Shown here piece by piece: positions 8,424-60,734 of a stretch of 64,000 nucleotides of DNA. The notes under the pieces were generated by a model. The model searched no databases. It was given only the letters and a program-made list of their open reading frames with translations, and had not been told where the DNA came from. Numbering within the stretch: the stretch's first letter is position 1; every line of letters starts with the position of its first letter. This DNA is from Paraburkholderia sp. (GTDB taxonomy: Bacteria > Pseudomonadota > Gammaproteobacteria > Burkholderiales > Burkholderiaceae): positions 111,211 through 175,210 of the forward strand of contig NZ_JAPWKB010000003.1 in NCBI RefSeq assembly GCF_028283785.1. Direction: 5' to 3'. Both the position numbers and the translations under genes were made by a program.

Positions 8424-9944
8424 CTAGCCTTCACCACCACCCCGACGCTGGGAACGCTCTTGCGGGTTCCGTACCGCCCGGTCCGCTGGCGAACCTGGCG
8501 TCGGCAGGCGCACGATAAACGTCGTGTGGACGCCGCGCGCCGACGTGCATTCGATGCTGCCGCCCAGCATTTCCGTGGCCCGCCGGCAGAACGCGAGGCC
8601 CATGCCCGCGCCGCTGCCGTGGCGCTTGGTCGAAAAGAACGGATCGAAGATATGCGGCAATACGTCGGGCGTGATGCCCGGGCCCGTGTCGTGAAACCGC
8701 AGTACGCAGAAGTCGCGCTCCTGCGACGCGCTGATCGAAATCTGCCCGTCGCCGCCGACGCGAATCGCATGCAACGCATTTTTCAGCAGGTTGAACAGCA
8801 CGAACACCACCAGCGTATCCGAGCCGGAAAAGCTGAGCGCCGGGTCGATCGGCGCGACGTCGATACGCGCGCGTTCGTCGCTGCGAAACGGATAGCGTTC
8901 GAGCGCCGAGCTGACGCACGGCTGCACGGCATACGTGCTGAAGCGGCTGCGATCGAGTCGGTCGAGCGTGAACGACGCCAGCGCCATCTCGATCACCGCG
9001 CTGGTACCCGACACTTCGCGTCGGATCGCCGTCGCCAGCTGGCTGATGCGCTCGGACTGGCCGGAATGCGAATGGTCGTCGTACAGGCCGTGCGCGACCG
9101 CCAGCCGGTAACCCTTGAAGACGTCGCCCCACACCGTGGCGATCTCGTCCGCGTGCATCGCAATGGTGGCGAGCGGCGTGGCGACTTCGTGCGCAATGCT
9201 CGCGGCCAGCGCATACGGATGAATCAGGTGATAGCGCACGATCGTGATGGCCAGCAGCCCCAGACTCAGCGCGATAAACAGCACGCCCGGCGGATAAAAC
9301 GAAAAGCCGTAGTTGACCGCGTAATCGACGGCGGCGAACGAGTACAGGCCGAGGCTCGCCACGCACAGATCGAGTCGCCGCCGCGCTTCGCCGCCCGCTT
9401 TCCGGCGCGCGTCGAGCAGCAGATAGCCGCTGCGCGCCGCCAGCAACACCGTCTGCACGACGTGCAACGGATGCAGATGCCCGGCCAGCGGATAGAAGCC
9501 GAAGAAATAGCGCCGGTAACCCGCGATCACCTCAGTGCCCGGCAGCAGCACCGCCAGCAGAAAACACAGCCCGTACGATGCCAGCAGCCACGGTCGCTCG
9601 CGCCGCCGCGCCGAGACTTCGGTGACGAAGTGATAGAACGTGGTCGGCAGAAACAGAATGAACAGATAGCCGAGCCGCACCAGCCAGCCCGCCATCTGCG
9701 GATCGTCGGTCTGGAACAGCAGGGTCCAGGTCGCCTGCCACGCGAAGGTGGTCGCGCACATCAGCAGGAACGGCACCGACAGCCGCGTCAGTCCTTGCGT
9801 GATCAGCACATAAAGGCCGAACACGATGAACATCGCGGACACGAAGGCCGTCGGGATGGCGTACATATGACTCAGCGCGTCGAACACGGCAATCCAGCGA
9901 TCATGCAGACGCCCGTGGCTTCTGGTCTTTGCGCCAGTCGGCAA
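8424..9944 (-). CDS. sensor histidine kinase with a multi-pass (6-7 TM) N-terminal sensor
   Basis: H-box SIAHEVATPLATI, N-box LFNLLKNALHA, G-boxes DTGPGI and GSGAGMGLAFC. The N-terminal ~240 aa are almost entirely hydrophobic helices. Alternative start at 9866 (MYAIPT). Confidence 0.8.
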   Translation of the reverse strand: MPTGAKTRSHGRLHDRWIAVFDALSHMYAIPTAFVSAMFIVFGLYVLITQGLTRLSVPFLLMCATTFAWQATWTLLFQTDDPQMAGWLVRLGYLFILFLPTTFYHFVTEVSARRRERPWLLASYGLCFLLAVLLPGTEVIAGYRRYFFGFYPLAGHLHPLHVVQTVLLAARSGYLLLDARRKAGGEARRRLDLCVASLGLYSFAAVDYAVNYGFSFYPPGVLFIALSLGLLAITIVRYHLIHPYALAASIAHEVATPLATIAMHADEIATVWGDVFKGYRLAVAHGLYDDHSHSGQSERISQLATAIRREVSGTSAVIEMALASFTLDRLDRSRFSTYAVQPCVSSALERYPFRSDERARIDVAPIDPALSFSGSDTLVVFVLFNLLKNALHAIRVGGDGQISISASQERDFCVLRFHDTGPGITPDVLPHIFDPFFSTKRHGSGAGMGLAFCRRATEMLGGSIECTSARGVHTTFIVRLPTPGSPADRAVRNPQERSQRRGGGEG

Positions 9945-46070: not shown

Positions 46071-46101
46071 TGATTGACTCCGTTTTGTGAAGGAACTGCG
46101 C

Positions 46102-46272
46102 TTAATCGCCAGCGCGCGGATAGGGCGCGCTAGAACTCTCCCCTCTCGCCATCCAGCCTTCGAAGCGCCAGCGCGTTTGCAGCCAGAGATATGTCCCGTC
46201 CGGTAACCGGTCGAGCGGCAATGCTTCGCTCCGTGCGTAGTGCTCGAAGGATTCGATGGGGTCGGGGGTCAT
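46102..46272 (-). CDS. possible 56-aa hypothetical protein
   Basis: Hand-translated as MTPDPIESFEHYARSEALPLDRLPDGTYLWLQTRWRFEGWMARGESSSAPYPRAGD. No convincing SD. Confidence 0.25.
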   Translation of the reverse strand: MTPDPIESFEHYARSEALPLDRLPDGTYLWLQTRWRFEGWMARGESSSAPYPRAGD

Positions 46273-46346
46273 CTGAGGAATAAAAAGAAGGGCTAGCTTC
46301 AGCCCTTGAAAGCAGACGCCGCCTTGGGCGTCCGCCTGAGAGTTGG

Positions 46347-48086: not shown

Positions 48087-49802
48087 TCAGGCCGCGTGTT
48101 CGAGCGCTACATGCGTGGAGATTGTCGCTGTCTCGATGTGTCGGATCAGCGCAGCGCAGATCTTCGGGAAGTCTTCTTCGTGATACAGCTTCGCCGACTT
48201 GTCCGTTGCTGCTGGTTTGAACCCCAGCGTCGCGAGGCCTTCGGCACTGAGCGCGACCGGCGCCAATCGTTCGTTGATCTGCCCGAGTCTTAGGGTTGGC
48301 GCGCTGGTCGGGGCCGAGCGCGTCTTAGCCATGGTCTCTGCGAACCCACTCCGCGTACCCACACCCTGATTCGCAACTCCAGCAGCCGTAGAAATCGTCG
48401 AGCCAGAGGTGACCTCCGCAGAGACACGCGCGTTTCCCGCCTCTTCCGCGATCTTCTGCCGCGCTTTGTCTTCTTCCTCGCGCCGGATGCGTTCGCGCTC
48501 GTCGTCGAGGCGCTTTTGTTCTGCGGCCTTGTGGGTCGCGATCCGCGTCGAGACGATCAGCTTCAAATCGTCCAGATGCTTTGCGATGAGCGCCGCTGTG
48601 TCATTGAACAGGAAGGCGTAGCCAGCGCCGTCTGTTGCGATGCACGCGAGGTTCTCGCGGACGCGCCTCGCGGAAGCATCGGCGTCGATCTTCGCGTTAG
48701 CCAGCACCGTGTTTACGGCATCCTGAATGCTAGCGACGGTGCGTTTTCCCTTGGCGGCAGCGCCGAAGTCGGGCTGAGACATGCTGACGAGATGACCGCC
48801 GGTCTCTTCACGCAGGACGGCGAGATGACGCTCATACGCGCGCTTTGCCTTGAGCAGGATCTCGTCCTTGATTTCGACCTTCCGCTTCGTGACGAGCTTG
48901 TCGAGAGCGAGGCGCGTGGAGCGGGCTTCGGCGGCGATATCGTCGATCGTCTTGAACAGCACATCGATGCTCTCGGTCTGGCTCAGTGCGTGCTGCTTTG
49001 CAGCCTCGAGGCGTGTCTCGACTTCACCGCACCACTTGACGGCCTTCTCAGCGTCAGCGAAATGCTGATCGGTCGTGAGTTCACGATTGATGCCACCAAA
49101 CACGGCCATCGCATGAGCGCGGAACTCGGTCAGGTTGCTGGCCGTCACCATGCCGGTCACTTCAATGCGTAGCGCGGGCAGGGCCTCAGGCGTGCGGCCA
49201 ACCGGCTTTGCTTCGATGACCTCCGGAGAGTAGGCTTCGGCGTCCCTCTCAAACTGGCTCCAGCCGGCCAAAATGCGGTCGCGCCAGACAGGATCAGGCA
49301 AGACTTCCATGCTTACCATGTTCTCGCGCGTGCCGTCCGACACGGTGAAAACCACTTTCTCTGCGCCTGTCACCAACATGATCTGTTGCGGTTGCGGTAT
49401 GTACTCCTCAGGGAGAACCCCCGCAGCGACCGACTTCGCGAGTGCGTCGTTCCATTGTTTGTGCTCCCAGGCGATCCGTTCGTCCATCGTCAGGCCGTCG
49501 CACGAAGCGGACAGGACGCCGAGCGAGCAGGTGACCGGATAGAGTTCTTCGCCGAGCATCTCTTCAGCGAGGGGTCGCGCCATCGCTTCGACTTCGTGAC
49601 CTTTATCGAGGATGCGCGTCTGCACGAACTCGCTGAATTCTTTGGCCGTTCCGACGACCTTCATGTGCAGAAGTTCGGTTCGCTTAATCTTCGTCGAGAC
49701 GCCGAGCATCGCGCCGGCTTCGCTCGCGCCGAAGTGGGTTAGGCGGAACTGCGCCCACTCTTCGCTACCCTGCGCGAGATCGTGAATGATGCGTTCAGTC
49801 AT
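48087..49802 (-). CDS. YqaJ/lambda-Exo-like recombination exonuclease with ~370-aa C-terminal extension
   Basis: N-terminal GSEEWAQFRLTHFGASEAGAMLG ... DGL ... EHK PD-(D/E)XK pattern. Residues ~200-571 are coiled-coil/low-complexity. Confidence 0.8.
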   Translation of the reverse strand: MTERIIHDLAQGSEEWAQFRLTHFGASEAGAMLGVSTKIKRTELLHMKVVGTAKEFSEFVQTRILDKGHEVEAMARPLAEEMLGEELYPVTCSLGVLSASCDGLTMDERIAWEHKQWNDALAKSVAAGVLPEEYIPQPQQIMLVTGAEKVVFTVSDGTRENMVSMEVLPDPVWRDRILAGWSQFERDAEAYSPEVIEAKPVGRTPEALPALRIEVTGMVTASNLTEFRAHAMAVFGGINRELTTDQHFADAEKAVKWCGEVETRLEAAKQHALSQTESIDVLFKTIDDIAAEARSTRLALDKLVTKRKVEIKDEILLKAKRAYERHLAVLREETGGHLVSMSQPDFGAAAKGKRTVASIQDAVNTVLANAKIDADASARRVRENLACIATDGAGYAFLFNDTAALIAKHLDDLKLIVSTRIATHKAAEQKRLDDERERIRREEEDKARQKIAEEAGNARVSAEVTSGSTISTAAGVANQGVGTRSGFAETMAKTRSAPTSAPTLRLGQINERLAPVALSAEGLATLGFKPAATDKSAKLYHEEDFPKICAALIRHIETATISTHVALEHAA

Positions 49803-50658
49803 TTTCGTGACTCCATGAATCGATAGTGGTTTTCTGGTCTTCGGTCAGCGCGGCACCGCGCGCTTCGATGAACGCGACCATTCCAGCGACCGTCTTGCGA
49901 CCTGACTTGACAATCTCGCGCCACGAAGCCTTGTTCTTGTCGAACGCCTCCTGGCTGTATTGCTGAGGCTCGGCTGACGACTTGGCACCCTTCTGGTTTG
50001 CGGGCGACTCACTGCGGTGACTTTCTTTCCCTGCGTCGCCGTCAGCGCCGCCAGCGCCGTCGTCGTCCTCTTCCTTCGTGGACATACCAGTGACGGACAG
50101 AAGCGTGTAGCGCTGGAGGTAGGTGATCGTGCTGGCGGCTTGCTGGATCGCATTCTTCTTGCCGCTCGAGTCGGGTGCGCCGCTCATGGTCACTTTCTTG
50201 GAGTAGCCAAGTTCATGCGTGACTACACAGTCGATCGTGATCGATCCCGCCGTCTGGTGAATATCCCAATCAAAGCTGAGACCGTGCCGCGCCATCGCAG
50301 GGGCTATTGCGTCAGTGATGTCTGCCAGCGTGGCGTGCTTGTAACCGACGAAATCGCCAGCGCCCGTCTTGTAGCCGACCTCTTTGCGCTTGAAGATTTC
50401 GATAGGCTCACGCTTGAAAGTCGCCATAGCCGACACGAATGCCTTGCGGGCCTCGTTCGCCTCCCAGCGCTCCTGAAGCTCCATCAGCTTTTCGAGCCGG
50501 TCGAGATCGGCATTTGACTCAACTGCAATGCGTAGTAGATCGGAGGGCGTCGTCGTCGCGATTGCCGTGCGTTGCTCTGGCTGCACAACTGGTCTGTTGG
50601 AAGAGGTAAATTCGGCGGATTCGACGTCGATCACGTCAGCCATCGTTGCTGTATTCAC
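49795..50658 (-). CDS. ERF-family single-strand annealing protein
   Basis: Core FVGYKHATLADITDAIAPAMARHGLSFDW ... ITYLQRYTLL. Lies directly upstream of the exonuclease gene. Confidence 0.8.
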   Translation of the reverse strand: MNTATMADVIDVESAEFTSSNRPVVQPEQRTAIATTTPSDLLRIAVESNADLDRLEKLMELQERWEANEARKAFVSAMATFKREPIEIFKRKEVGYKTGAGDFVGYKHATLADITDAIAPAMARHGLSFDWDIHQTAGSITIDCVVTHELGYSKKVTMSGAPDSSGKKNAIQQAASTITYLQRYTLLSVTGMSTKEEDDDGAGGADGDAGKESHRSESPANQKGAKSSAEPQQYSQEAFDKNKASWREIVKSGRKTVAGMVAFIEARGAALTEDQKTTIDSWSHEND

Positions 50659-52467: not shown

Positions 52468-52601
52468 GCTTTCACCCCCGTTAAGCCGCCTTGCTCCATG
52501 CGCTCCGCCGACTCGCGCTGCTTCCTGGCGCCGTGGATGAAGAGGACTGCGCAGATTGCTAGCCCCGTCCAGACGCCAATTCCGATTCCGAGATAAAACA
52601 T
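52464..52601 (-). CDS. 45-aa single-pass membrane peptide
   Basis: MFYLGIGIGVWTGLAICAVLFIHGARKQRESAERMEQGGLTGVKA, with GGAG 6 nt upstream of the ATG. Confidence 0.45.
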   Translation of the reverse strand: MFYLGIGIGVWTGLAICAVLFIHGARKQRESAERMEQGGLTGVKA

Positions 52602-52761
52602 GTTGGTCTCCGTTAGCACCAGACGATCAATTCGAACGAGACCGTTCGGGCAAAGATCGAATTCAGGTACTGGTCGAAATGTCTTGTGAACACCACGCAG
52701 TGATGCGTTGTGCGTACCAGGCGTAGGCCGGTGAAATCGCTGTAAAACACGGTGGTCTCCG

Positions 52762-52989
52762 CTATGGGCAGCATCGAGGCGAGCCGCCGCAGTAATGCAC
52801 ATAGTCGATGTCGATCTCTTCCGGTCCGCAGTACAGTTCTCGCCACTCACCGCACCGGCAACACATCGCCTCGTAGCCGCCCTGCACGTCCCGCAGAACG
52901 TCCTCGTCAAGCAACTCTTGAACGTGGCGATCGGCGTCGCTCTGAACTGGAATCGGCGCTTGCTGGTTTAGCCAGCGACTGAAGTCCAT
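52762..52989 (-). CDS. Cys-rich hypothetical phage protein
   Basis: 75 aa ending in CCRCGEWRELYCGPEEIDIDYVHYCGGSPRCCP. Confidence 0.55.
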   Translation of the reverse strand: MDFSRWLNQQAPIPVQSDADRHVQELLDEDVLRDVQGGYEAMCCRCGEWRELYCGPEEIDIDYVHYCGGSPRCCP

Positions 52990-53743
52990 AACTTGCTCCT
53001 GTAGCAGTCCTAATCCGTGAATCTACAATTCCATCAACCACGCTTCTAGCTGCTCACTCAGCGAATGGGCATCTGGTAGCGTGGTTTGAACAATCTCAGT
53101 GGAGCGCCCTATACCCCGATCGCCATTTCGGGATGCAACACAGGGAGGTTAGGTTCACCAACCCTGCCACCGGAGTTCGCACCGGTTCGCTCGTTGTGCG
53201 TTTTTGAATTGAGTGCGCCACCACTCATGTCGCCGTAGAGAGGATTTGCCCCTCAGTCGGCCGCGCCCACTGGATCACTAGGACGCTCCACTGAAACTGC
53301 ATCCCGAACCCTTCCGGCTACACCCAGCGATGCTGGCTCCGGCCTGAGTTCGGGCGGTACTACTCAATCAAGCATCCGTTCTATAACCACTCTGGCGGCC
53401 AGGCGGATGACTGATAGGTCCCGATCTTTTCAGCGGTAGGACGTTGAGCGCTCCCTTTCGGGTATCTCTTCTGTTGCAACCCACCCCAACTCCTATTGTT
53501 CGACAGGTAGCGGATAACCGCCCTAAGTCCGGCTCAAGCTAGTGGGTCGCGTTGTTAAAGATCACTTGCCCCACCAGGCGACGCTATGCGCCTGTGTTCC
53601 TCTACTGCGGTGATTCACGGTCTCGTCAGTGAGCGCGTTACGCTCAGACCGGCTGCATCTATTGCGGCCGGTTTCGACCTTTTATCTCTATCCAGTTTCC
53701 GTTTTCGGCGTCACTCCGATGTGCGTACCGGGTGACGCACCAG
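52990..53743 (-). ncRNA. candidate large structured non-coding segment of the pL transcript (ORF-free, hairpin-dense); function unknown
   Basis: No ORF of 60 aa or more in any of six frames across ~750 bp, unlike everything around it. Several perfect stems and two 10-nt long-range complementarities (see findings). Strand is inferred only from the surrounding operon. Confidence 0.25.
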
Positions 53744-53869
53744 TTAGCCGTAATCCAGCTTTGCCAACTGGTGGTGCGCACGCTGCTCGCGATACGCCTT
53801 AGTCGGGTTAGGCCGCCACTTCCGAAGTACGCACACTACGATCAGAGGCAGCAGGAGAAAGATCAGCAT
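53744..53869 (-). CDS. 41-aa single-pass membrane peptide
   Basis: MLIFLLLPLIVVCVLRKWRPNPTKAYREQRAHHQLAKLDYG. The ATG abuts the upstream stop (TGAATG). Confidence 0.4.
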   Translation of the reverse strand: MLIFLLLPLIVVCVLRKWRPNPTKAYREQRAHHQLAKLDYG

Positions 53870-54046
53870 TCAATACCCAAGCACTTCGCGAGCTGCCTGC
53901 ATCGTCGCCGGGATCGTTTCGTACTCGATGAAGTGACGGCGATCGGCGGCAACGCACATCGTCGCGATGGTCAGCGTGCCGTTGCCGTTGTCGATCGTCG
54001 GTTCCGGTCGGTCGTGGCTGTCAATCCATGCGATCAGTCCGTTCAT
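53870..54046 (-). CDS. first gene of the leftward early operon, hypothetical (58 aa)
   Basis: ATG 54046 is preceded by gaggag. The longer track ORF (to 54121) would run through the operator/promoter sequence. Confidence 0.5.
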   Translation of the reverse strand: MNGLIAWIDSHDRPEPTIDNGNGTLTIATMCVAADRRHFIEYETIPATMQAAREVLGY

Positions 54047-54091
54047 CTCGCTCTCCTCGGCTTGGGTTCGTTGCTGCTTGGTATGGACTCT

Positions 54092-54181
54092 ATTAAACAC
54101 CACGTTTAAACGTGTTGTCAAACACGATGTTTAAACTTCGCGAAGAAATTTGTAACAGACGGAGTCGTGGCGTTTAAACGC
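54092..54181 (-). promoter_or_regulatory. putative pL/OL: sigma70-like promoter with three GTTTAAAC-core palindromic operators
   Basis: On the minus strand, TTGACA (54116-54121), an 18-nt spacer, then TTTAAT (54092-54097). The 14-bp palindrome CACGTTTAAACGTG (54101-54114) lies in the spacer. Further sites: GTTTAAAC at 54129-54136 and GCGTTTAAACGC at 54170-54181. Confidence 0.55.
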
Positions 54182-54231
54182 TCGGTGCTGGCGGCATCGA
54201 CTAGACTAAAAGTCTCGTTTGGAGGTGCGCT

Positions 54232-54432
54232 ATGACAGCGGACGATGTGCTGACAGTGTTTGAGCGCTTGAATGTCGAAGGACGCGCGGATGTGCCGCTC
54301 GATGACGCATGTGCGGGGTTCGCCGGCTGGCTAGCGGAGAACTGGGAGAGATTCGAGGGTGACGACCTGGCGATGCTCACATCGGTTGGCGCCACGCTCT
54401 GGAGGGAGGGATTCGCGCAGAGGCGGAAATGA
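54232..54432 (+). CDS. hypothetical protein, rightward-oriented between OL and the TA pair
   Basis: 66 aa, with ggagg 6 nt upstream of the ATG. Confidence 0.5.
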   Translation: MTADDVLTVFERLNVEGRADVPLDDACAGFAGWLAENWERFEGDDLAMLTSVGATLWREGFAQRRK

Positions 54433-55855: not shown

Positions 55856-56650
55856 TTAGTTTCCGCCAGCCAGGCCGGACCCCGACCGGTACACGACCTC
55901 ACCTGCGATCTGCAGCCCCTCGAGCTGCTCGGCAGAGATGATCTTGTCCGGATACTCAGAGTTGTAGGAATGAAGGCGCAAAGCGCCCTCGGGTTCCTTG
56001 AAGATCTGTTTCACAAGCGGCTCGTCTTCGAATGTCACCGCATAGATTAGGCCGTCTTTGACCCGGGTTTTCGCCGTGCAGATCATCATCATGTCTCGAT
56101 TGAACAAGTAGGGCTCCATGCTCCGGCCATGAACCTGAGCCAACTTGCAATCCTGCGGGCGCACACCGAGCGCCTTGAAAAACCCGATATCAAACGGCAG
56201 CGCTTTTTTCTGTCGCACTTCCCACTGAATCACGCCGTTCCCCGCTGAATAACGATAGTCATACCGGTCGATCCATACCCGATCGCTGTCGGGCTCCAGG
56301 TCGTCCGGCTTCTCCCAGGTAACCAAGTTACCTTTGTCTGAAGGGAGTAATTCAGCGATTACACGCTTTGTTTGGTCGTTTATCTCCGCACTCTCAAGCG
56401 GAGATTCGTGTTTAAGACCGCTCGGGACCATCTCTCCGACGCCCGTTAGCAACCATGTTGCGTCACATCCAATAAGGGCCTGCGCCTTCAGCGCGCCCTC
56501 TCTTGACACGCCCCGGCTCGACCAGTTGGTGATCGACTGAGGCACCACATCAAGCAGACGAGCGACATCCGAAGGGCCTTCAACACCCTTCATTTCTTTG
56601 GCAGCCAGGAACAACCGTGCGGCTGTTCCGTGAATAACGCGTTCTTTCAT
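55856..56650 (-). CDS. cI: CI-like repressor (XRE HTH + S24 LexA-type autopeptidase)
   Basis: ATG 56650. HTH DVARLLDVVPQSITNWSSRG. S24 motifs GRSMEP and VKQI (Ser/Lys dyad region). Confidence 0.9.
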   Translation of the reverse strand: MKERVIHGTAARLFLAAKEMKGVEGPSDVARLLDVVPQSITNWSSRGVSREGALKAQALIGCDATWLLTGVGEMVPSGLKHESPLESAEINDQTKRVIAELLPSDKGNLVTWEKPDDLEPDSDRVWIDRYDYRYSAGNGVIQWEVRQKKALPFDIGFFKALGVRPQDCKLAQVHGRSMEPYLFNRDMMMICTAKTRVKDGLIYAVTFEDEPLVKQIFKEPEGALRLHSYNSEYPDKIISAEQLEGLQIAGEVVYRSGSGLAGGN

Positions 56651-56668
56651 GGCCGCGATCTTTGCACA

Positions 56669-56747
56669 AGTAAACGGAATGTTGTTACACGCGGCGTTTG
56701 TAAAATCTGTTGACGGTGGTTTAAACATAGTGTGTAATGTACTCACC
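56669..56747 (+). promoter_or_regulatory. putative pR/OR (and pRM region) between cI and cro
   Basis: TTGACG (56710-56715), a 17-nt spacer, then TGTAAT (56733-56738), with GTTTAAAC (56719-56726) in the spacer. Degenerate half-sites at CGTTTGTAAAA (~56695) and GTAAACGG (~56670). Confidence 0.55.
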
Positions 56748-57020
56748 ATGATTAAACACACCGACCTTCACCCCGACAGCCAGCTCATCGAAGAGCTGGG
56801 CGGTGCCACCAAGTTGGCCGAACGGCTTGGCTACCAGGCGCGCGGCGGCATTCAGCGGATCCAGAACTGGAAGACGCGCGGAATACCAGCCGAAGTCAAG
56901 CTGGAGCACCCCGAGCTGTTCCTGACCGATCTTATTGATCGCGCCAGGGCGACAGACGATACCCAGCCGCCAGTCGGGACAGTAAAGGGATCGGACAAGC
57001 TCTCGAAGATGGTCGCGTAG
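56748..57020 (+). CDS. cro: Cro/YdaS-like HTH regulator
   Basis: ATG 56748. LIEELGGATKLAERLGYQARGGIQRIQNWKTRGIPAEV. Divergent from cI. No SD; the ATG lies ~10 nt after the -10 element. Confidence 0.6.
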   Translation: MIKHTDLHPDSQLIEELGGATKLAERLGYQARGGIQRIQNWKTRGIPAEVKLEHPELFLTDLIDRARATDDTQPPVGTVKGSDKLSKMVA

Positions 57021-58431: not shown

Positions 58432-58920
58432 ATGGAATGGTTCCGCTGGTGGCACGGCACCCTGACCGATCCGAAGTTCCAATGGGTCGCGCGGAAGTCT
58501 GGCCAATCGTTTACCTCGGTGATCGCACTTTGGGTCGCGTTGCTCGAACGAGCCAGCAGTGTGACGCAAGGTGACGCAGATGTGACGCGCGGTGACGTCG
58601 CAGGATTTGACTGTGACGACCATGATGTTTTGTTCGGCCTAGATGATGGTTGTTGCGCCCGGATTCTGGATGCTTTTGTTGCCAAGGGGATGATCGCCAA
58701 CGGCGTGATCACGAACTGGGAAAAGCGCCAGCCTAAGCGCGAAGACTCAAGCGCAGCAAGGACTCGCGCGTATCGTGAGCGCAAAGCACAGGAGTCCTCT
58801 GTGACCACCGGTGACGCTGCTGTGACGCACGGTGACGATAAGAAGAGAGAAGAGAAGAGCAGAGAAAACCCAGAGCCTAACGGCTCTGTCGACAGCGGCG
58901 CAAAGGGCAGCGCCGACTGA
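58432..58920 (+). CDS. putative replication-origin-associated protein (contains iteron arrays)
   Basis: 162-aa ORF immediately upstream of the helicase-loader-like and dnaB genes. Carries two arrays of GTGACGC repeats. Function inferred from position and the iterons. Confidence 0.55.
   Translation: MEWFRWWHGTLTDPKFQWVARKSGQSFTSVIALWVALLERASSVTQGDADVTRGDVAGFDCDDHDVLFGLDDGCCARILDAFVAKGMIANGVITNWEKRQPKREDSSAARTRAYRERKAQESSVTTGDAAVTHGDDKKREEKSRENPEPNGSVDSGAKGSAD
58561..58619. repeat. iteron array 1: five GTGACG(C/T/A) heptamers, first four phased 10-11-10 bp
   Basis: Copies at 58561, 58571, 58582, 58592 and 58613, read directly. Confidence 0.8.
58801..58838. repeat. iteron array 2: four GTGAC(C/G) heptamers phased 10-11-10 bp
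   Basis: Copies at 58801, 58811, 58822 and 58832. Same spacing as array 1. Confidence 0.8.
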
Positions 58921-58927
58921 CGACCTG

Positions 58928-59328
58928 TTGGCGGCAGAGATCGGAAAGGTAACGGCTGAGACCGGGGAGTCCGACAACGCTTCACTGCACTGCCCCGTCT
59001 CCCGAATCGTTAGCGCATATCACGAGTTGATGCCCCTGAATCCGAGGGTCAAGGTTTTGAATGACAAGCGCAGGAAGTCTATTTCTGCGCGCTGGCGTGA
59101 GGCTGCAAGGTTGGATTTCAAGCCATTCGGTTATGCGACGGTTCAGCAGGGCCTGGATGCGTGGAGAGAGTTTTTCACAGTCTGCGCAGGCTCAGATTTC
59201 CTGACTGGCAAAGGAAAGCCCAAGCCAGGGCTGGGGCCGTTCTCTTGGCTGACATCGACTTCCTGATGTCGCCGGAAGGCTTTGCGAAGTGCTTTGAGAA
59301 CAAGTACCACCGTGAGGTTAAAGAATGA
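58928..59328 (+). pseudogene. replication accessory protein with a reading-frame break near 59235-59245
   Basis: Frame 2 gives CPVSRIVSAYHELMPLNPRVKVLNDKRRKSISARWREA...FFTVCAGSDFLTGKGKPKPG. The family-typical ending ADIDFLMSPEGFAKCFENKYHREVKE is in frame 1 and overlaps the dnaB start by ATGA. The start codon (TTG 58928) is uncertain. Confidence 0.45.
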
Positions 59329-60734
59329 ATGCCCCCGACCGATTTATCGAAGGCCGCAGCTTGAACGTACCGCCGCACAGCGCTGAAGCCGAGCAATCCG
59401 TTCTCGGCGCGCTGATGTTCGACAACGACGCGATGGACCGGATCGCCGATCTCCGCGCGACGCACTTTTACCGCTACGACCACCGCATCATTTTCGATTG
59501 CATCGCGAAGCTGATCGTCTCCGGTCGCAACGCCGACGTCATCACGGTTTATGAATCGCTTGGTACGGCTGGCAAGGCTGACGAGATCGGCGGTCTTGCG
59601 TACCTGAACACGCTCGTGCAGAACACGCCGGGAAGCAGTGGCATCCGTCGCTGGGCGGAGATTGTGATCAACCGCGCGAAGCTGCGCGGCCTGATTTCGG
59701 CTGCCGACGAAATCTCCGCAATGGCGTTTCAGCCGGAGGGTCGCGAAGTGTCCGAGATCATCGCCCACGCGCAAGCGAAGCTCGAGCCGCTGGCCGATGC
59801 GGGTGCTCGCGAACCGGCGTTCATCGCCACGTTCCTGACGCCGATCATTGAACGCATCGACCAGGAGTTTCACGGCAGCACGGAAGTCAAGACATCGTAT
59901 TCGACCGGACTTCGGGACCTCGACGAGAAGCTGGGCGGCGGCATGAAAGGCGGTCAACTGATCATCGTTGCTGGGCGCCCGGCAATGGGAAAAAGCGCGA
60001 TCGCACTCGGCGTGTCTGAGTCTGTAGCCGATGCTGGCGCGACGGCTATGTTTTTCACGCAGGAAATGACTGGGTCAGAGTTGACGTCACGTTCGCTCTC
60101 CCGGAAGTCGGGGCTTGCACTGGACAAGATCCTGAACGGCGCGAAGATCGGCCAACAAACCGACGCCGACTGGTCAATGCTGACGCTGGGCGTTCAGCGG
60201 CTGTCTGAATTGCCGCTTCTGATCGACGAGACGGCCGGCATTTCATTGCCAGAGATTCAGGCTCGTGCTCGCGCGGCGAAGCGCAAGCATGGCTTGGGGC
60301 TGATCGTCGTCGACTATCTTGGGCTGATGGCGGCATCGCAGGGTGCGAACCGGACTGAGCAGGTCGGCGCGAACAGTCGCGGTCTGAAGACGTTAGCGAA
60401 GCAGCTCGACATTCCGATCCTGTTGCTGGCCCAGCTCAACCGGAAGCTCGAGGAGAGAAACAACAAGCGCCCGATGCTTTCCGACCTCCGTGACTCTGGA
60501 GAAATTGAACAGGATGCGGACGTGGTTCTGTTCCTGTATCGCGACGAAGTCTACAACCCGGATTCGCCCGAGCGCGGTACCGCCGAGATCAATGTGGCTA
60601 AGCAGCGTAACGGCCCGACCGGGATCGTCCGAGCAGCCTACTTTGGCGAGCGAACTACGTTTTCGGACATGGAGCCGGGTTATATGCCGGAACTGCGCAA
60701 AGCGCCAGAGAAAGCACGGCGCGGTTTCGAGTAA
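59325..60734 (+). CDS. dnaB: replicative DNA helicase
   Basis: 469 aa. N-terminal PPHSAEAEQSVLGALM, Walker A GRPAMGKS, DYLGLM, and SLKTLAKQLDIPILLLAQLNR motifs. Confidence 0.95.
   Translation: MNAPDRFIEGRSLNVPPHSAEAEQSVLGALMFDNDAMDRIADLRATHFYRYDHRIIFDCIAKLIVSGRNADVITVYESLGTAGKADEIGGLAYLNTLVQNTPGSSGIRRWAEIVINRAKLRGLISAADEISAMAFQPEGREVSEIIAHAQAKLEPLADAGAREPAFIATFLTPIIERIDQEFHGSTEVKTSYSTGLRDLDEKLGGGMKGGQLIIVAGRPAMGKSAIALGVSESVADAGATAMFFTQEMTGSELTSRSLSRKSGLALDKILNGAKIGQQTDADWSMLTLGVQRLSELPLLIDETAGISLPEIQARARAAKRKHGLGLIVVDYLGLMAASQGANRTEQVGANSRGLKTLAKQLDIPILLLAQLNRKLEERNNKRPMLSDLRDSGEIEQDADVVLFLYRDEVYNPDSPERGTAEINVAKQRNGPTGIVRAAYFGERTTFSDMEPGYMPELRKAPEKARRGFE

Follow-up and report, generated by a model that had tools for sequence, protein, structure and literature searches.

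A large structured RNA, headed by a hammerhead ribozyme, is encoded in a gene-free stretch of the leftward early operon of Paraburkholderia sp., within the 64-kb stretch of DNA that was analysed as a whole (hereafter the window). This is the main reading of the original prediction, and it is borne out by compensatory base-pair changes in homologous loci and by strand-specific folding. The body of the RNA belongs to a family that is absent from Rfam 15; the claim of novelty concerns the RNA itself and does not extend to its mechanism.

Genomic context

The segment 52990-53743 had been singled out as free of open reading frames (ORFs), and this holds: no other part of the 64-kb window goes as long without ORFs of at least 60 aa in any of the six frames as 52990-53731, whose 742 nt compare with 273 nt for the runner-up. 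The gap 52990-53743 coincides exactly with an intergenic interval on the minus strand, from the stop codon of a 41-aa ORF to the ATG of a 75-aa ORF. The minus strand is the sense strand of the leftward early operon, and the genes downstream of the RNA run from the 75-aa ORF through Erf and exonuclease. A candidate promoter lies about 340 nt upstream of the RNA, with two small ORFs in between. It is part of the context and outside the RNA proper, and is missing from our consensus scan because the scan demands an A at position 2 of the -10 hexamer. In a scan of the operon, nothing terminator-like was found between the RNA and the next gene, and no strong intrinsic terminator was found within the leftward operon before 46307->46288. 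The features of the region, as read along the minus strand, are the following.

54170-54181, 54126-54139 and 54101-54114: GTTTAAAC-type operator palindromes overlapping the candidate promoter
54088..54121, minus strand: candidate early leftward promoter, found by eye (-35 TTGACA, 54121->54116; 18-nt spacer; -10 TTTAAT, 54097->54092)
53870-54046, minus strand: 58-aa ORF upstream of the RNA (phrog_31662)
53744-53869, minus strand: 41-aa hydrophobic ORF upstream of the RNA
53708..53738, minus strand: hairpin GCGUCAC-N17-GUGACGC, just past the stop of the 41-aa ORF and upstream of the ribozyme
53619..53679, minus strand: predicted type II hammerhead ribozyme, GGUC-GAA-stem III (53672->53648)-C17-stem I (53646->53630)-CUGACGA (53629->53623)-GACC
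53554..53618, minus strand: 5' domain, with tail GUGAAUCACCGCAGUAGAGGAAC (53618->53596), hairpin CAGGCG-N8-CGCCUG (53594->53575) and box GAUCUUUAAC (53563->53554)
53476..53550, minus strand: window-specific inserted hairpin domain, closed by GCGACCCAC/GUGGGUUGC
53364..53472, minus strand: conserved family core of 109 nt (RNAalifold consensus; covariance model R1, 123 bits at 53362-53476)
53303..53354, minus strand: three-tier hairpin with an asymmetric internal loop G(U/A)GUAG
53090..53300, minus strand: long-stem module, a 22-bp stem GCAGUUUCAGUGGAGCGUCCUA (53300->53279) / UAGGGCGCUCCACUGAGAUUGU (53111->53090) enclosing five hairpins
53007..53086, minus strand: 3' element, with an imperfect hairpin (53086->53036) and box UUAGGAC (53013->53007), followed by AGGAG and the ATG at 52989
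ATG at 52989, minus strand: 75-aa ORF downstream of the gap, with an AGGAG Shine-Dalgarno sequence

A type II hammerhead at the head of the RNA

Judged from its sequence, the 61-nt element 53679->53619 is a canonical type II hammerhead, and self-cleavage is predicted between 53647 (C17) and 53646. The catalytic core is complete (C3 U4 G5 A6 N7 G8 A9, G12 A13 A14, A15.1-U16.1 and H17), with CUGACGA at 53629->53623, GAA at 53675->53673, A15.1 (53672) paired with U16.1 (53648) and C17 at 53647. Stems I, II and III have 7, 4 (GGUC/GACC) and 6 bp; only stem II is open, the other two being capped. Published acceptance criteria for hammerheads concern the core and helices free of mispairs next to it (Perreault et al., 2011, PMC3088659); here all three helices are formed and no mispair adjoins the core. 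Two of the stems had been listed previously as simple hairpins (TGAGCG..CGCTCA and ACCGGC..GCCGGT). Both hairpins are real, as stems I and III of the hammerhead, which had gone unrecognised.

The core is invariant across four aligned homologues (position 17 is C, A, C and C), in which 14/14 pairs hold everywhere and six show double changes, while slid controls gave 25-46%. Among seven homologous copies that were read, six distinct stem I sequences occur and in one copy stem II changes from GGUC/GACC to GAUC/GAUC; six homologous copies combine an unchanged core with compensatory changes in the stems. Further homologous copies were identified in the related loci L151, L155 and L157. The element was recovered by our own descriptor scan and also matches the Rfam Hammerhead_II model (RF02276) over its full length (positions 1-66 of 66) with 22.3 bits and E = 0.0088, a score below the gathering score of 37 that appears only when 116 nt are searched and is missed in the 64-kb and 1.8-kb Rfam scans. 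In most type II hammerheads a pseudoknot of at least 4 bp joins loop I to the tail 3' of stem II (Perreault et al., 2011, PMC3088659). By eye, such a pairing could form with 4 bp in L020 (GUAA/UUAC) and 3 bp in L091, with none in the window or L096, and is not conserved. Since the pseudoknot is not evident, the ribozyme could be slow.

Hammerheads of the same subtype (GGUC...GACC) have 93 distinct occurrences in viral contigs, 57 of them (61%) at most 40 nt upstream of a Shine-Dalgarno sequence and start codon. Thus the subtype is a common intercistronic element of phage contigs. By itself, the window hammerhead adds one more ordinary example to a known class. A hammerhead is present in only 4 of the first 12 family members; of the others, some carry another kind of 5' element and some begin directly behind a promoter. 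The alternative 5' element, CUGUUC-hairpin-CAGUGCGAAUAGCAC, is found in L087, L088, L094, L100 and L158, just upstream of the family 5' tail, the place that the hammerhead takes elsewhere. No second hammerhead flanking the RNA (circle formation) was found by descriptor scan in the window and L001-L149.

Upstream of the ribozyme, the arms of the hairpin at 53708..53738 (GCGTCAC-N17-GTGACGC in the DNA) had been equated with the replication iterons. The heptamer does match an iteron-like cluster (58561-58822), but it occurs 24 times in the window, so a link between the hairpin and the iterons is not supported. The hairpin is identical in L218 and thus carries no covariation information; it lies outside the conserved family and would stay on the upstream cleavage product.

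A conserved scaffold downstream of the ribozyme

The whole gap folds with -307 kcal/mol on the minus strand (z = -4.7 relative to shuffled sequence) and with -274 kcal/mol on the plus strand (z = -3.8). The 211-nt 3' module alone folds with -101.3 kcal/mol, with z = -5.5 on the minus and z = -2.8 on the plus strand. Downstream of the ribozyme the order is 5' hairpin, insert, 109-nt core, three-tier hairpin, long stem with its five-hairpin module, and 3' hairpin by the ribosome-binding site. A search for covariation in homologous regions had been proposed as a check, and compensatory pair changes were found in the hammerhead, the core and the three-tier hairpin.

The 5' hairpin (CAGGCG..CGCCTG), one of those listed before, is seen by eye to recur in the 5' domains of further members, where the stem sequences are altered yet stay paired (CAGGCG/CGCCUG, CAGGUA/UACCUG and CGGGUA/UAUCCCG). 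In L261, L218 and L198 the 5' domain is near-identical. Box GAUCUUUAAC is complementary to AAAGAUC in a core loop, an unproven candidate pseudoknot; both strands are nearly invariant and, by eye, the sole variable position is uncompensated. The insert that follows has nothing at its place in most members and a different insert in L261, and the GCGG-ataa-CCGC hairpin noted earlier sits within it.

In the core, 97.1% of cells are paired in an alignment of 12 sequences and 96.6% in one of 15. In the latter, double changes occur in 21/32 pairs, which 0/500 shuffles reach (slid controls 32-45%), although the family is small (about 15 core loci) and its members are related, so that these counts are not of independent events. 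One helix (GRG/CYC) surrounds a CCC-GNRA-GGG hairpin, and another (GYCC..GGRC) surrounds a near-invariant loop, CUGAAAAGAU, that is unchanged in 12/15 members. The core also holds a long hairpin, CUAUC...GAUUG. The diverged cores of L154, L158 and L261 show compensatory changes in helices that were previously invariant. Strand-specific G.U pairs are present as well: in the 15-sequence alignment, columns 126-143 are GU in 15/15 and columns 83-104 are UG in 13/15. We also considered whether the UUAGGAC box might pair with the core sequence GUCCUA and rejected this, as no covariation is seen by eye and the core nucleotides are already part of a supported helix.

The three-tier helix (53303-53354) had been predicted correctly and is conserved, with double changes in 13/18 pairs in 7 sequences. 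Two perfect complementarities of 10 nt had also been reported, and both are present (53096/53285 and 53127/53299). The earlier estimate of about 0.3 such pairs by chance was about right, since dinucleotide shuffles give a mean of 0.18, and the probability of two or more is 0.016. The first is part of the 22-position helix of the long stem, which is at the same position in 12/12 members examined. The second (53127-37 with 53298-308) had been proposed to cross the first as a pseudoknot. It is present in the window but has no counterpart in any of the 11 other members, and it competes with the conserved three-tier hairpin. We therefore rejected it as a conserved pseudoknot; it is an unsupported pairing that may be window-specific or due to chance.

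In the long stem, 22/22 positions are paired, including four G.U pairs. Its position and the GCAG-UUU junction are conserved, while the interior of the module is unique to the window. No relatives of this interior were found by blastn, so its internal fold is a thermodynamic prediction. A long helix occurs at the junction in 12/12 members, 11 of which score 21-27 pairs over 22-29 positions; for L089 our script finds only 10/12, and a stem of about 25 bp with an internal loop is seen by eye. In L198 a compensatory change by eye converts GUGAAUGGCG/CGCCAUUCAC to GUGAGUGGCG/CGCCACUCAC. The stem has the length of an RNase III substrate (at least 20 bp of nearly uninterrupted dsRNA), and cleavage is predicted. 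In L020, L088, L089, L090, L094 and L100, genes that are not homologous follow a comparable 3' hairpin (of the CUGCCGAUUC-nnn-GAGUCGGCAG type) and a UUAG(G/U)AC box. The unit seems to bring its own translation-initiation context.

The family and its mosaicism

Window-type cores were identified at 15 loci in Paraburkholderia and Caballeronia prophages and viral contigs, and about 15 further loci keep the scaffold with other cores or modules, some of them tRNA-like. The loci were retrieved by exact patterns, an 18-mer and a second pattern that gave the same loci; an initial 25-mer pattern gave no matches. The RNA is found only in Burkholderiaceae prophages (Paraburkholderia, Caballeronia) and unassigned viral contigs. 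The genomes of P. dilworthii WSM3556, P. phenoliruptrix LMG 22037 and C. glathei DSM 50014 carry members. L218 is 91% identical to the window over the end of the 41-aa ORF, the upstream hairpin, the ribozyme and the 5' hairpin, and then continues with a different core. Other core types are those of L151/L155/L157 and of L198/L218. Modules resembling tRNA occur in L155 (10291-10388, with an 8-nt anticodon loop) and L088 (9299-9392, with 19.8 bits to tRNA-Sec), and no tRNA or tRNA-like element was found in the window by ARAGORN or the Rfam tRNA models. The module-A stem pattern identifies 14 loci which, L153 being left out of the check, are by reading known members or have the same RNA scaffold.

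No partner protein was identified, since no protein cluster occurs in more than 6/12 loci. The RNA is absent from the loci of homologues of the 58-aa and 75-aa flanking proteins, and exact look-ups of the flanking proteins gave only short Logan contigs of the same phage. Among 80 Erf-linked loci, L020 alone carries the RNA. A covariance-model match in L068 (21 bits) lies within a 622-aa ORF and was taken as chance.

The Rfam/Infernal scan that had been suggested for the gap returned no family at or above the gathering score of Rfam 15, in the window or in 19 related loci, the hammerhead match being sub-threshold. GOLLD, ROOL, HEARO, OLE, raiA, group I/II introns, RNase P, tmRNA, 6S and C4 gave no covariance-model match. 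With E-values up to 10, the region 52500-54300 yielded only a microRNA match and the hammerhead clan; in the same mode the gap, L088 and the alternative 5' element of L094 yielded only the sub-threshold hammerhead and noise. Lacking too are DNA similarities of the window gap and the L090 RNA to GenBank phages and plasmids, and no prior description of the RNA family was found in the searchable literature.

Proposed mechanism

We lean towards a structured RNA that is cut by the hammerhead, processed by RNase III, released from the early transcript and active in trans on the host, and we hold this with rather modest confidence. The RNA would be transcribed together with the leftward early operon, after the two small ORFs. 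The hammerhead (53679->53619), evident from sequence and covariation, would then cut between 53647 and 53646 and detach the mRNA of the two ORFs, leaving a downstream RNA with a 5'-OH and, at its 5' end, the stem I hairpin. About 560 nt (53646->~53090) fold into the conserved scaffold, with its covarying structure of 5' hairpin, optional insert, core, three-tier hairpin and long stem with an exchangeable distal module, and the 3' hairpin and UUAGGAC box adjoin the ribosome-binding site of the next gene. The suggestion of a processing element is thus apt for the 5' 61 nt, the type II hammerhead, whereas a large non-coding RNA, also among the options offered, fits the remaining ~560 nt.

RNase III would probably cut the long stem, of at least 21 bp and retained whatever its sequence, so that the core RNA (about 350 nt), the module and the mRNA of the downstream recombination genes would come apart. 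In the last and weakest step, the released core and modules may serve as stable non-coding RNAs when lytic growth begins. Since the RNA is not accompanied by any phage protein, they would target some component of the host. Cores and modules are swapped even between close phages, as is usual for host-facing loci.

A wider proposal, which we put forward as doubtful, is that these RNAs form an undescribed superfamily: ribozyme-led modular RNAs of 0.55-1.2 kb in the early operons of Burkholderiaceae temperate phages, in which one scaffold is shared by at least three alternative cores and the long-stem modules (some of them tRNA mimics) are swappable. They would be cut out by hammerhead and RNase III and act in trans against the host. 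Possible roles would be as decoys for tRNA- or RNA-targeting defence nucleases, as determinants of immunity specificity between related phages, or as self-assembling RNA-only particles like ROOL and GOLLD.

Alternative explanations

We regard as a real though lesser prospect that the RNA is a purely cis-acting giant leader, which after the hammerhead cut remains the 5' UTR of the downstream early genes and gives no product acting in trans. Its job might then be mRNA protection (by the 5'-OH end, 5' hairpin and compact fold), the setting of translation of the first gene, or both. The passage from the RNA to the next gene without a terminator-like site and the conserved 3' box by the ribosome-binding site fit a leader as well as a released RNA; in at least 7 members the 3' hairpin and UUAG(G/U)AC box abut the Shine-Dalgarno sequence of non-homologous genes. 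On this reading, the nearness of most hammerheads of the subtype to a start codon would point to mRNA processing as their usual role (see also PMC3088659). Yet known 5' stabilisers need far less than a 109-nt core in which loops are near-invariant, a GNRA hairpin is present and 21 pairs covary, joined by exchangeable tRNA-like modules, and the core is conserved though the genes downstream are unrelated. Stems of 21-29 bp are, moreover, normally cut by RNase III, so that the leader would part from its mRNA. RNA-based processive antitermination (put-like, an option offered originally, or EAR-like), in which the nascent RNA binds the polymerase, permits terminator read-through and replaces an N-type protein, is in our view improbable. 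The RNA is among the first elements past the early promoter, a hammerhead cut on its 5' side would leave the tether to the polymerase intact, and N proteins are arginine-rich, which neither small upstream ORF resembles. But HK022 has both putL and putR, whereas model R1 detects the core once in the window, with no copy in the rightward operon; the leftward operon offers no strong intrinsic terminator to read through before 46307->46288; and known antiterminator RNAs measure 70-130 nt, compared with 560-1200 nt and swappable modules here.

An element acting at the DNA level would be a palindromic cassette (a MITE-like insertion, a recombination hot spot or a protein-binding site) with hairpins that have no function as RNA. 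The modules are indeed bounded by a repeated junction (GCAGTTTT ... CTGCA) and terminal inverted repeats, they are shuffled among phages, and the arms of the upstream hairpin share their heptamer with the iteron-like repeats. This explanation, one of those offered originally, is nonetheless contradicted by conserved G.U pairs that would turn into A.C mismatches on the opposite strand. The ribozyme's orientation contradicts it as well: the unit is headed by a complete hammerhead that reads in the sense direction. The compensatory changes, too, work only on the operon-sense strand, the folding energy is strongly strand-asymmetric, and the loci with the module-A pattern, apart from L153, are by reading members or share the scaffold. 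We therefore rate it as very improbable. Least of all do we credit a decayed protein-coding gene, the chance of which we take to be negligible. The gap has about the length of a 250-aa gene in an otherwise tightly packed operon, but every frame contains at least 10 stop codons (10-14 per frame), and a search with the translations gave no Pfam or PHROGs match in any of the six frames at E up to 1, beyond one noise match of 0.26. The homologous loci carry the same non-coding elements and no intact gene, and substitutions keep base pairs, not codons.

Comparison with known systems

Several known systems share features with the RNA. Like the type II hammerheads of prophages (RF02276; PMC3088659), the one in the window has a full core and lies about 60 nt past the stop of the upstream gene in a phage polycistronic transcript, a placement that matches the published description of clustered prophage hammerheads. 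Unlike the 61% of its subtype found just before the next ribosome-binding site, it heads a 630-nt non-coding stretch, and unlike RF02276 members it scores below the gathering threshold and has no convincing loop I/3'-tail pseudoknot. With GOLLD and ROOL, ornate large RNAs that prophages often carry (PMC5737381; PMC12286853), the RNA shares a length of several hundred nucleotides, many helices, a location in prophages, the absence of an obligatory protein partner nearby and, in some relatives, an association with tRNA or tRNA-like elements. Neither covariance model matches it, even with E-values up to 10, and it differs further in lying within the sense strand of an early operon with a ribozyme at its head and interchangeable cores and modules, and in being known only from Burkholderiaceae prophages and unassigned viral contigs.

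RNase III processing stems are found in the early region of T7, the N leader of lambda and the flanks of 16S and 23S rRNA. As in these, the sequences flanking a folded domain in a polycistronic transcript form a stem, of 22 bp in the window and 21-29 positions in relatives; in contrast to them, the stem sequences vary by module type. The site feature compared is helix length. The put RNAs of HK022 are RNA-only antiterminators that lie immediately after pL and pR; each has two stem-loops in about 70 nt. The window RNA resembles them in being structured and in its early transcription from the leftward promoter, in a temperate phage with no obvious N protein, but it departs from the put type in copy number, size and architecture, having a single-copy core, a length 8-15 times greater and a modular build. 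The CI RNA of P4 and the C4 RNA of P1/P7 are immunity RNAs of 70-80 nt that are matured by RNase P and pair with nearby target sites. Like them, the window RNA may give rise to a stable RNA from the leader of an early transcript in an immunity region, and its variable parts could set specificity; they differ in that the window has no curated Rfam match and no target sites were identified in it.

Significance

To our knowledge, large and intricately folded bacterial RNAs are rare, and nearly every one that has been characterised (the ribosome, RNase P, group I/II introns, tmRNA, OLE and ROOL/GOLLD) has taught new biochemistry. The present RNA brings together an unusual set of features: it is delimited by a ribozyme, lies in the first kilobase of the early transcript of a temperate phage, has swappable cores and modules that include tRNA mimics, and has no protein partner. 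Experiments are feasible, as members are carried by three cultured, publicly available strains (WSM3556, LMG 22037 and DSM 50014). Were the RNA only a long leader, it would still be a new kind of 5' UTR, of narrower interest. For hammerheads in phage operons, the proposed mechanism would provide a concrete, testable job: setting the 5' end of a non-coding RNA.

A structured RNA in the leftward early operon

The window is a lambdoid-type prophage, and the gap at 52990-53743 encodes, in the sense orientation of the leftward early operon, an RNA fold of several domains that is supported by covariation, specific to one strand and bordered at its 5' edge by a complete hammerhead. A large structured RNA had been predicted here from the sequence by itself, and that prediction holds. 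The surrounding features, in window positions, are:

48087-49802, minus: RecE-like exonuclease
49795-50658, minus: Erf
ATG at 52989, minus: 75-aa ORF downstream of the gap, with AGGAG preceding the ATG
53744-53869, minus: 41-aa hydrophobic ORF upstream of the gap, which its stop codon bounds
54121->54092, minus: candidate early leftward promoter, TTGACA-18 nt-TTTAAT, recognized by eye
54101-54114, 54126-54139 and 54170-54181: three palindromes centred on GTTTAAAC, overlapping the candidate promoter
54454->54436, minus: strong terminator-like hairpin, AGCCCGCCGCGCGCGGGCT then TTTTCATTTC, a short way upstream of the candidate promoter
55856-56761, minus: CI-like repressor
59325-60734, plus: DnaB-like helicase

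The terminator-like hairpin probably ends the repressor transcription unit, and the palindromes are probable operators within a divergent control region (54088-54181). The candidate promoter was absent from the output of a consensus promoter scan. The operon appears to end, probably, at 46307->46288. GTGACGC heptamers at 58561, 58571, 58582, 58811 and 58822 (spacing ~10-11 nt), upstream of the DnaB-like helicase gene, are iteron-like repeats of a probable replication origin. The arms of a hairpin at 53708-53738 are indeed the same heptamer, as had been pointed out, but it is present 24 times in the window.

The gap is the exact minus-strand interval between the two ORFs and lies ~340 nt downstream of the candidate promoter, in agreement with the position originally proposed. 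When ORFs of 60 aa or more were counted in all six frames of the whole window, 52990-53731 (742 nt) was the longest uncovered stretch, as claimed. The runner-up (46074-46346, 273 nt) holds the minus-strand terminator-like hairpin 46307->46288. A protein-coding reading of the gap was rejected, with 10-14 stops in each of the six frames and no Pfam or PHROGs match. Both strands fold better than shuffled sequence (minus, -307 kcal/mol, z = -4.7; plus, -274 kcal/mol, z = -3.8), and the 211-nt 3' module alone shows a clear strand asymmetry (z = -5.5 minus vs -2.8 plus). No Rfam 15 family at gathering score and no tRNA were found in the window, and the gap has no DNA similarity among GenBank phages or plasmids.

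A type II hammerhead ribozyme

53679->53619, minus: type II hammerhead, GGUC-GAA-[ACCGGC..GCCGGU]-C-[UGAGCGU..GCGCUCA]-CUGACGA-GACC

By its sequence, this segment is a type II hammerhead and a new member of that known class, with cleavage predicted between 53647 and 53646 (triplet GUC). Two hairpins of the original prediction, ACCGGC..GCCGGU and UGAGCG..CGCUCA, proved to be its stems III and I; stem II is open. It conforms to all sequence criteria of Perreault et al. 2011 (PMC3088659); the loop I/tail pseudoknot common among type II hammerheads (PMC3088659) is not evident in this one. The Rfam Hammerhead_II model aligns full-length (22.3 bits, E = 0.0088, 116 nt searched), and the wider Rfam scans missed the ribozyme because this score is under the gathering threshold of 37. 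A descriptor scan of the window plus 1.58 Mb of comparison loci (L001-L149) gave type II hammerheads at the homologous position only, whereas shuffled sequence gave 1.3 hits, all types counted, for each full set. Across four aligned hammerheads the core is invariant and all 14 counted pairs are kept in every sequence, 6 of them changed on both sides; slid controls reach 25-46%. The ribozyme is present in only 4 of the first 12 members (loci with the family RNA), and further stem I variants occur in L151, L155 and L157.

The subtype is frequent in phage contigs, where 57 of its 93 distinct copies are followed within 40 nt by a Shine-Dalgarno sequence and a start codon, an intercistronic placement that agrees with prophage hammerheads already described. 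Unlike most of the subtype, the window hammerhead precedes 629 gene-free nt.

Type II hammerheads of the form GGUCGAAACC...CUGACGAGACC were seen in 114 viral-contig stretches (L159-L267; G+C 41% to 72%), typically with a stop codon (UAACA or UGACA) directly before them and the next Shine-Dalgarno sequence and start codon no more than 40 nt beyond; several contigs hold two copies. Locus L087 carries, ~400 nt upstream of its core in the sense direction, a hammerhead 5' half (CAGGUCGAAACCGCCGC..GCGGCA) without the remainder of the ribozyme. An ORF lies between this remnant and the RNA, and its ribosome-binding site comes directly after the remnant, which looks like a recombination scar within a former hammerhead.

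Conserved architecture of the RNA body

Loci reached via the flanking small proteins lack the RNA element. Of the 80 viral contigs whose Erf is related, only L020 has two blocks in common with the gap. An 18-mer from the better-conserved block, TACCGCTGAAAAGATCGG, identified 11 distinct viral contigs, and a second independent pattern returned the same set of loci. True hits in species-representative genomes were confined to Paraburkholderia dilworthii WSM3556, P. phenoliruptrix LMG 22037 and Caballeronia glathei DSM 50014; the remaining pattern hits there were judged chance matches. A metagenome scan gave nothing beyond loci matching contigs already collected. Later scans, with a gapped hammerhead pattern and a pattern for one module stem (modules are exchangeable long-stem units), added three diverged same-core members (L154, L158, L261) and ~15 further loci that, by reading of the sequences, have the common scaffold with other cores. 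This family-wide scaffold follows the ribozyme; its parts in the window, all minus strand, are:

After the ribozyme, before the 5' hairpin: tail G(U/C)GAAU..ACCGCAGUAGA
53594->53575: 5' hairpin, stem sequence varying among members (by eye)
53563->53554: GAUCUUUAAC box
53550->53476: inserted hairpin of 75 nt, window only (another insert occupies this place in L261)
53472->53364: core, 109 nt, 32 pairs predicted by RNAalifold
53354->53303: three-tier hairpin, 18 pairs
53300->53279 with 53111->53090: junction GCAG-UUU(U) and long helix, 22/22 positions in the window
53086->53036: 3' hairpin with box UUAG(G/U)AC, adjoining the next gene's ribosome-binding site

In 12 core sequences, the paired cells amount to 97.1% (shuffles, 85%), with double changes in 14 pairs. 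Adding the three diverged members gives 96.6% paired cells, with double changes in 21 of the 32 pairs; 0/500 shuffles match this, and slid controls reach 32-45%. These three were aligned by the covariance model of the core (R1), which leans towards structure. Conserved G.U pairs in the core fix the strand of the RNA. The three-tier hairpin, already recognized in the original prediction, has double changes in 13 of its 18 pairs (7 sequences).

The two perfect 10-nt complementarities reported earlier are both found in the gap, for which dinucleotide shuffles contain a mean of 0.18 perfect 10-nt pairs (P of two or more = 0.016). The first is contained in the long helix, which recurs in the other members with sequence differing by module type; ten score 21-27 pairs over 22-29 positions. 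In L089 a script finds 10/12, and a longer interrupted stem is seen by eye; the module-A stem of L198 has a compensatory A-U to G-C change (by eye). The second (53308->53298 with 53137->53127) is unsupported, since other members have no counterpart and it competes with the conserved three-tier hairpin.

No homologue was found for the window's five-hairpin distal module. The genes that follow the 3' hairpin and its box are mutually unrelated in at least 7 members.

Mosaic relatives

In some members, two to four modules follow one another, and the same junction opens each of them. In L155 (10291-10388, minus) a 98-nt tRNA-like gene occupies a module slot between two GCAGUUUUU junctions. Its variable arm is long, and its anticodon has 4 bases within an 8-nt loop; ARAGORN labels it 'tRNA-???', and it falls short of the gathering score for Rfam tRNA. 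In L088 the first long-stem module (9299-9392) combines an acceptor-like stem with two T-arm mimics (GUGGUUCGACUCCAC, GAGGUUCGACUCCUC), and matches the tRNA-Sec model weakly (19.8 bits, E = 0.66).

At 91% identity, L218 (9637-9825 and downstream) follows the window over the end of the 41-aa ORF, the upstream hairpin, the hammerhead and the 5' hairpin; beyond these its central core is a different one, and so are its modules. L198 has an alternative core similar to that of L218, and a third core type occurs in L151, L155 and L157. The L092 RNA starts directly after a promoter-operator region. L087, L088, L094, L100 and L158 carry a different element of ~55 nt, about 90-150 nt upstream of the core and just upstream of the 5' tail, the position of the hammerhead elsewhere in the family. 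This element, (stop codon)-CUGUUC-N5-hairpin-YAGUGCGAAUAGCAC, directly follows the upstream ORF's stop codon and has no Rfam match even with 126 nt searched; it might be self-cleaving in its turn, or be recognized by a nuclease. No protein cluster lies beside the RNA in more than 6 of the 12 loci.

Possible function and novelty

We lean towards an RNA that is processed. On established knowledge, the hammerhead would cleave, leaving the large RNA with a 5'-OH and the stem I hairpin. The stem of at least 21 bp would form a duplex of RNase III size, and once it was cut, core, module and downstream mRNA would come apart. Duplexes of this kind are cleaved to release RNAs in the T7 early region and in rRNA precursors. 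The freed RNAs might act in trans on a host component. Weak hints of this are that the core is complex and conserved, that no phage protein partner goes with the RNA and that modules are swapped; the tRNA mimicry of relatives is consistent with it.

The main rival is that the RNA is purely a cis-acting leader, a reading favoured by two features: a conserved box adjoins the ribosome-binding site, and no terminator-like site stands between the gap and the genes downstream of it. We consider this leader possible, if doubtful. That the segment provides put-like antitermination, works as a DNA-level element or is a pseudogene is, in each case, well below both the processed RNA and the leader in probability.

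The RNA body has no Rfam family match in the window or 19 related loci, no match to sequenced phages or plasmids in the collections searched, and no description that we found in the searchable literature. GOLLD and ROOL are likewise large, ornate and prophage-borne, and sometimes near tRNAs, but the RNA body differs from them in its fold, its embedding in an operon, its predicted ribozyme-defined 5' end and its modular exchange. On these grounds we rate it as a new RNA family, small and taxonomically narrow.
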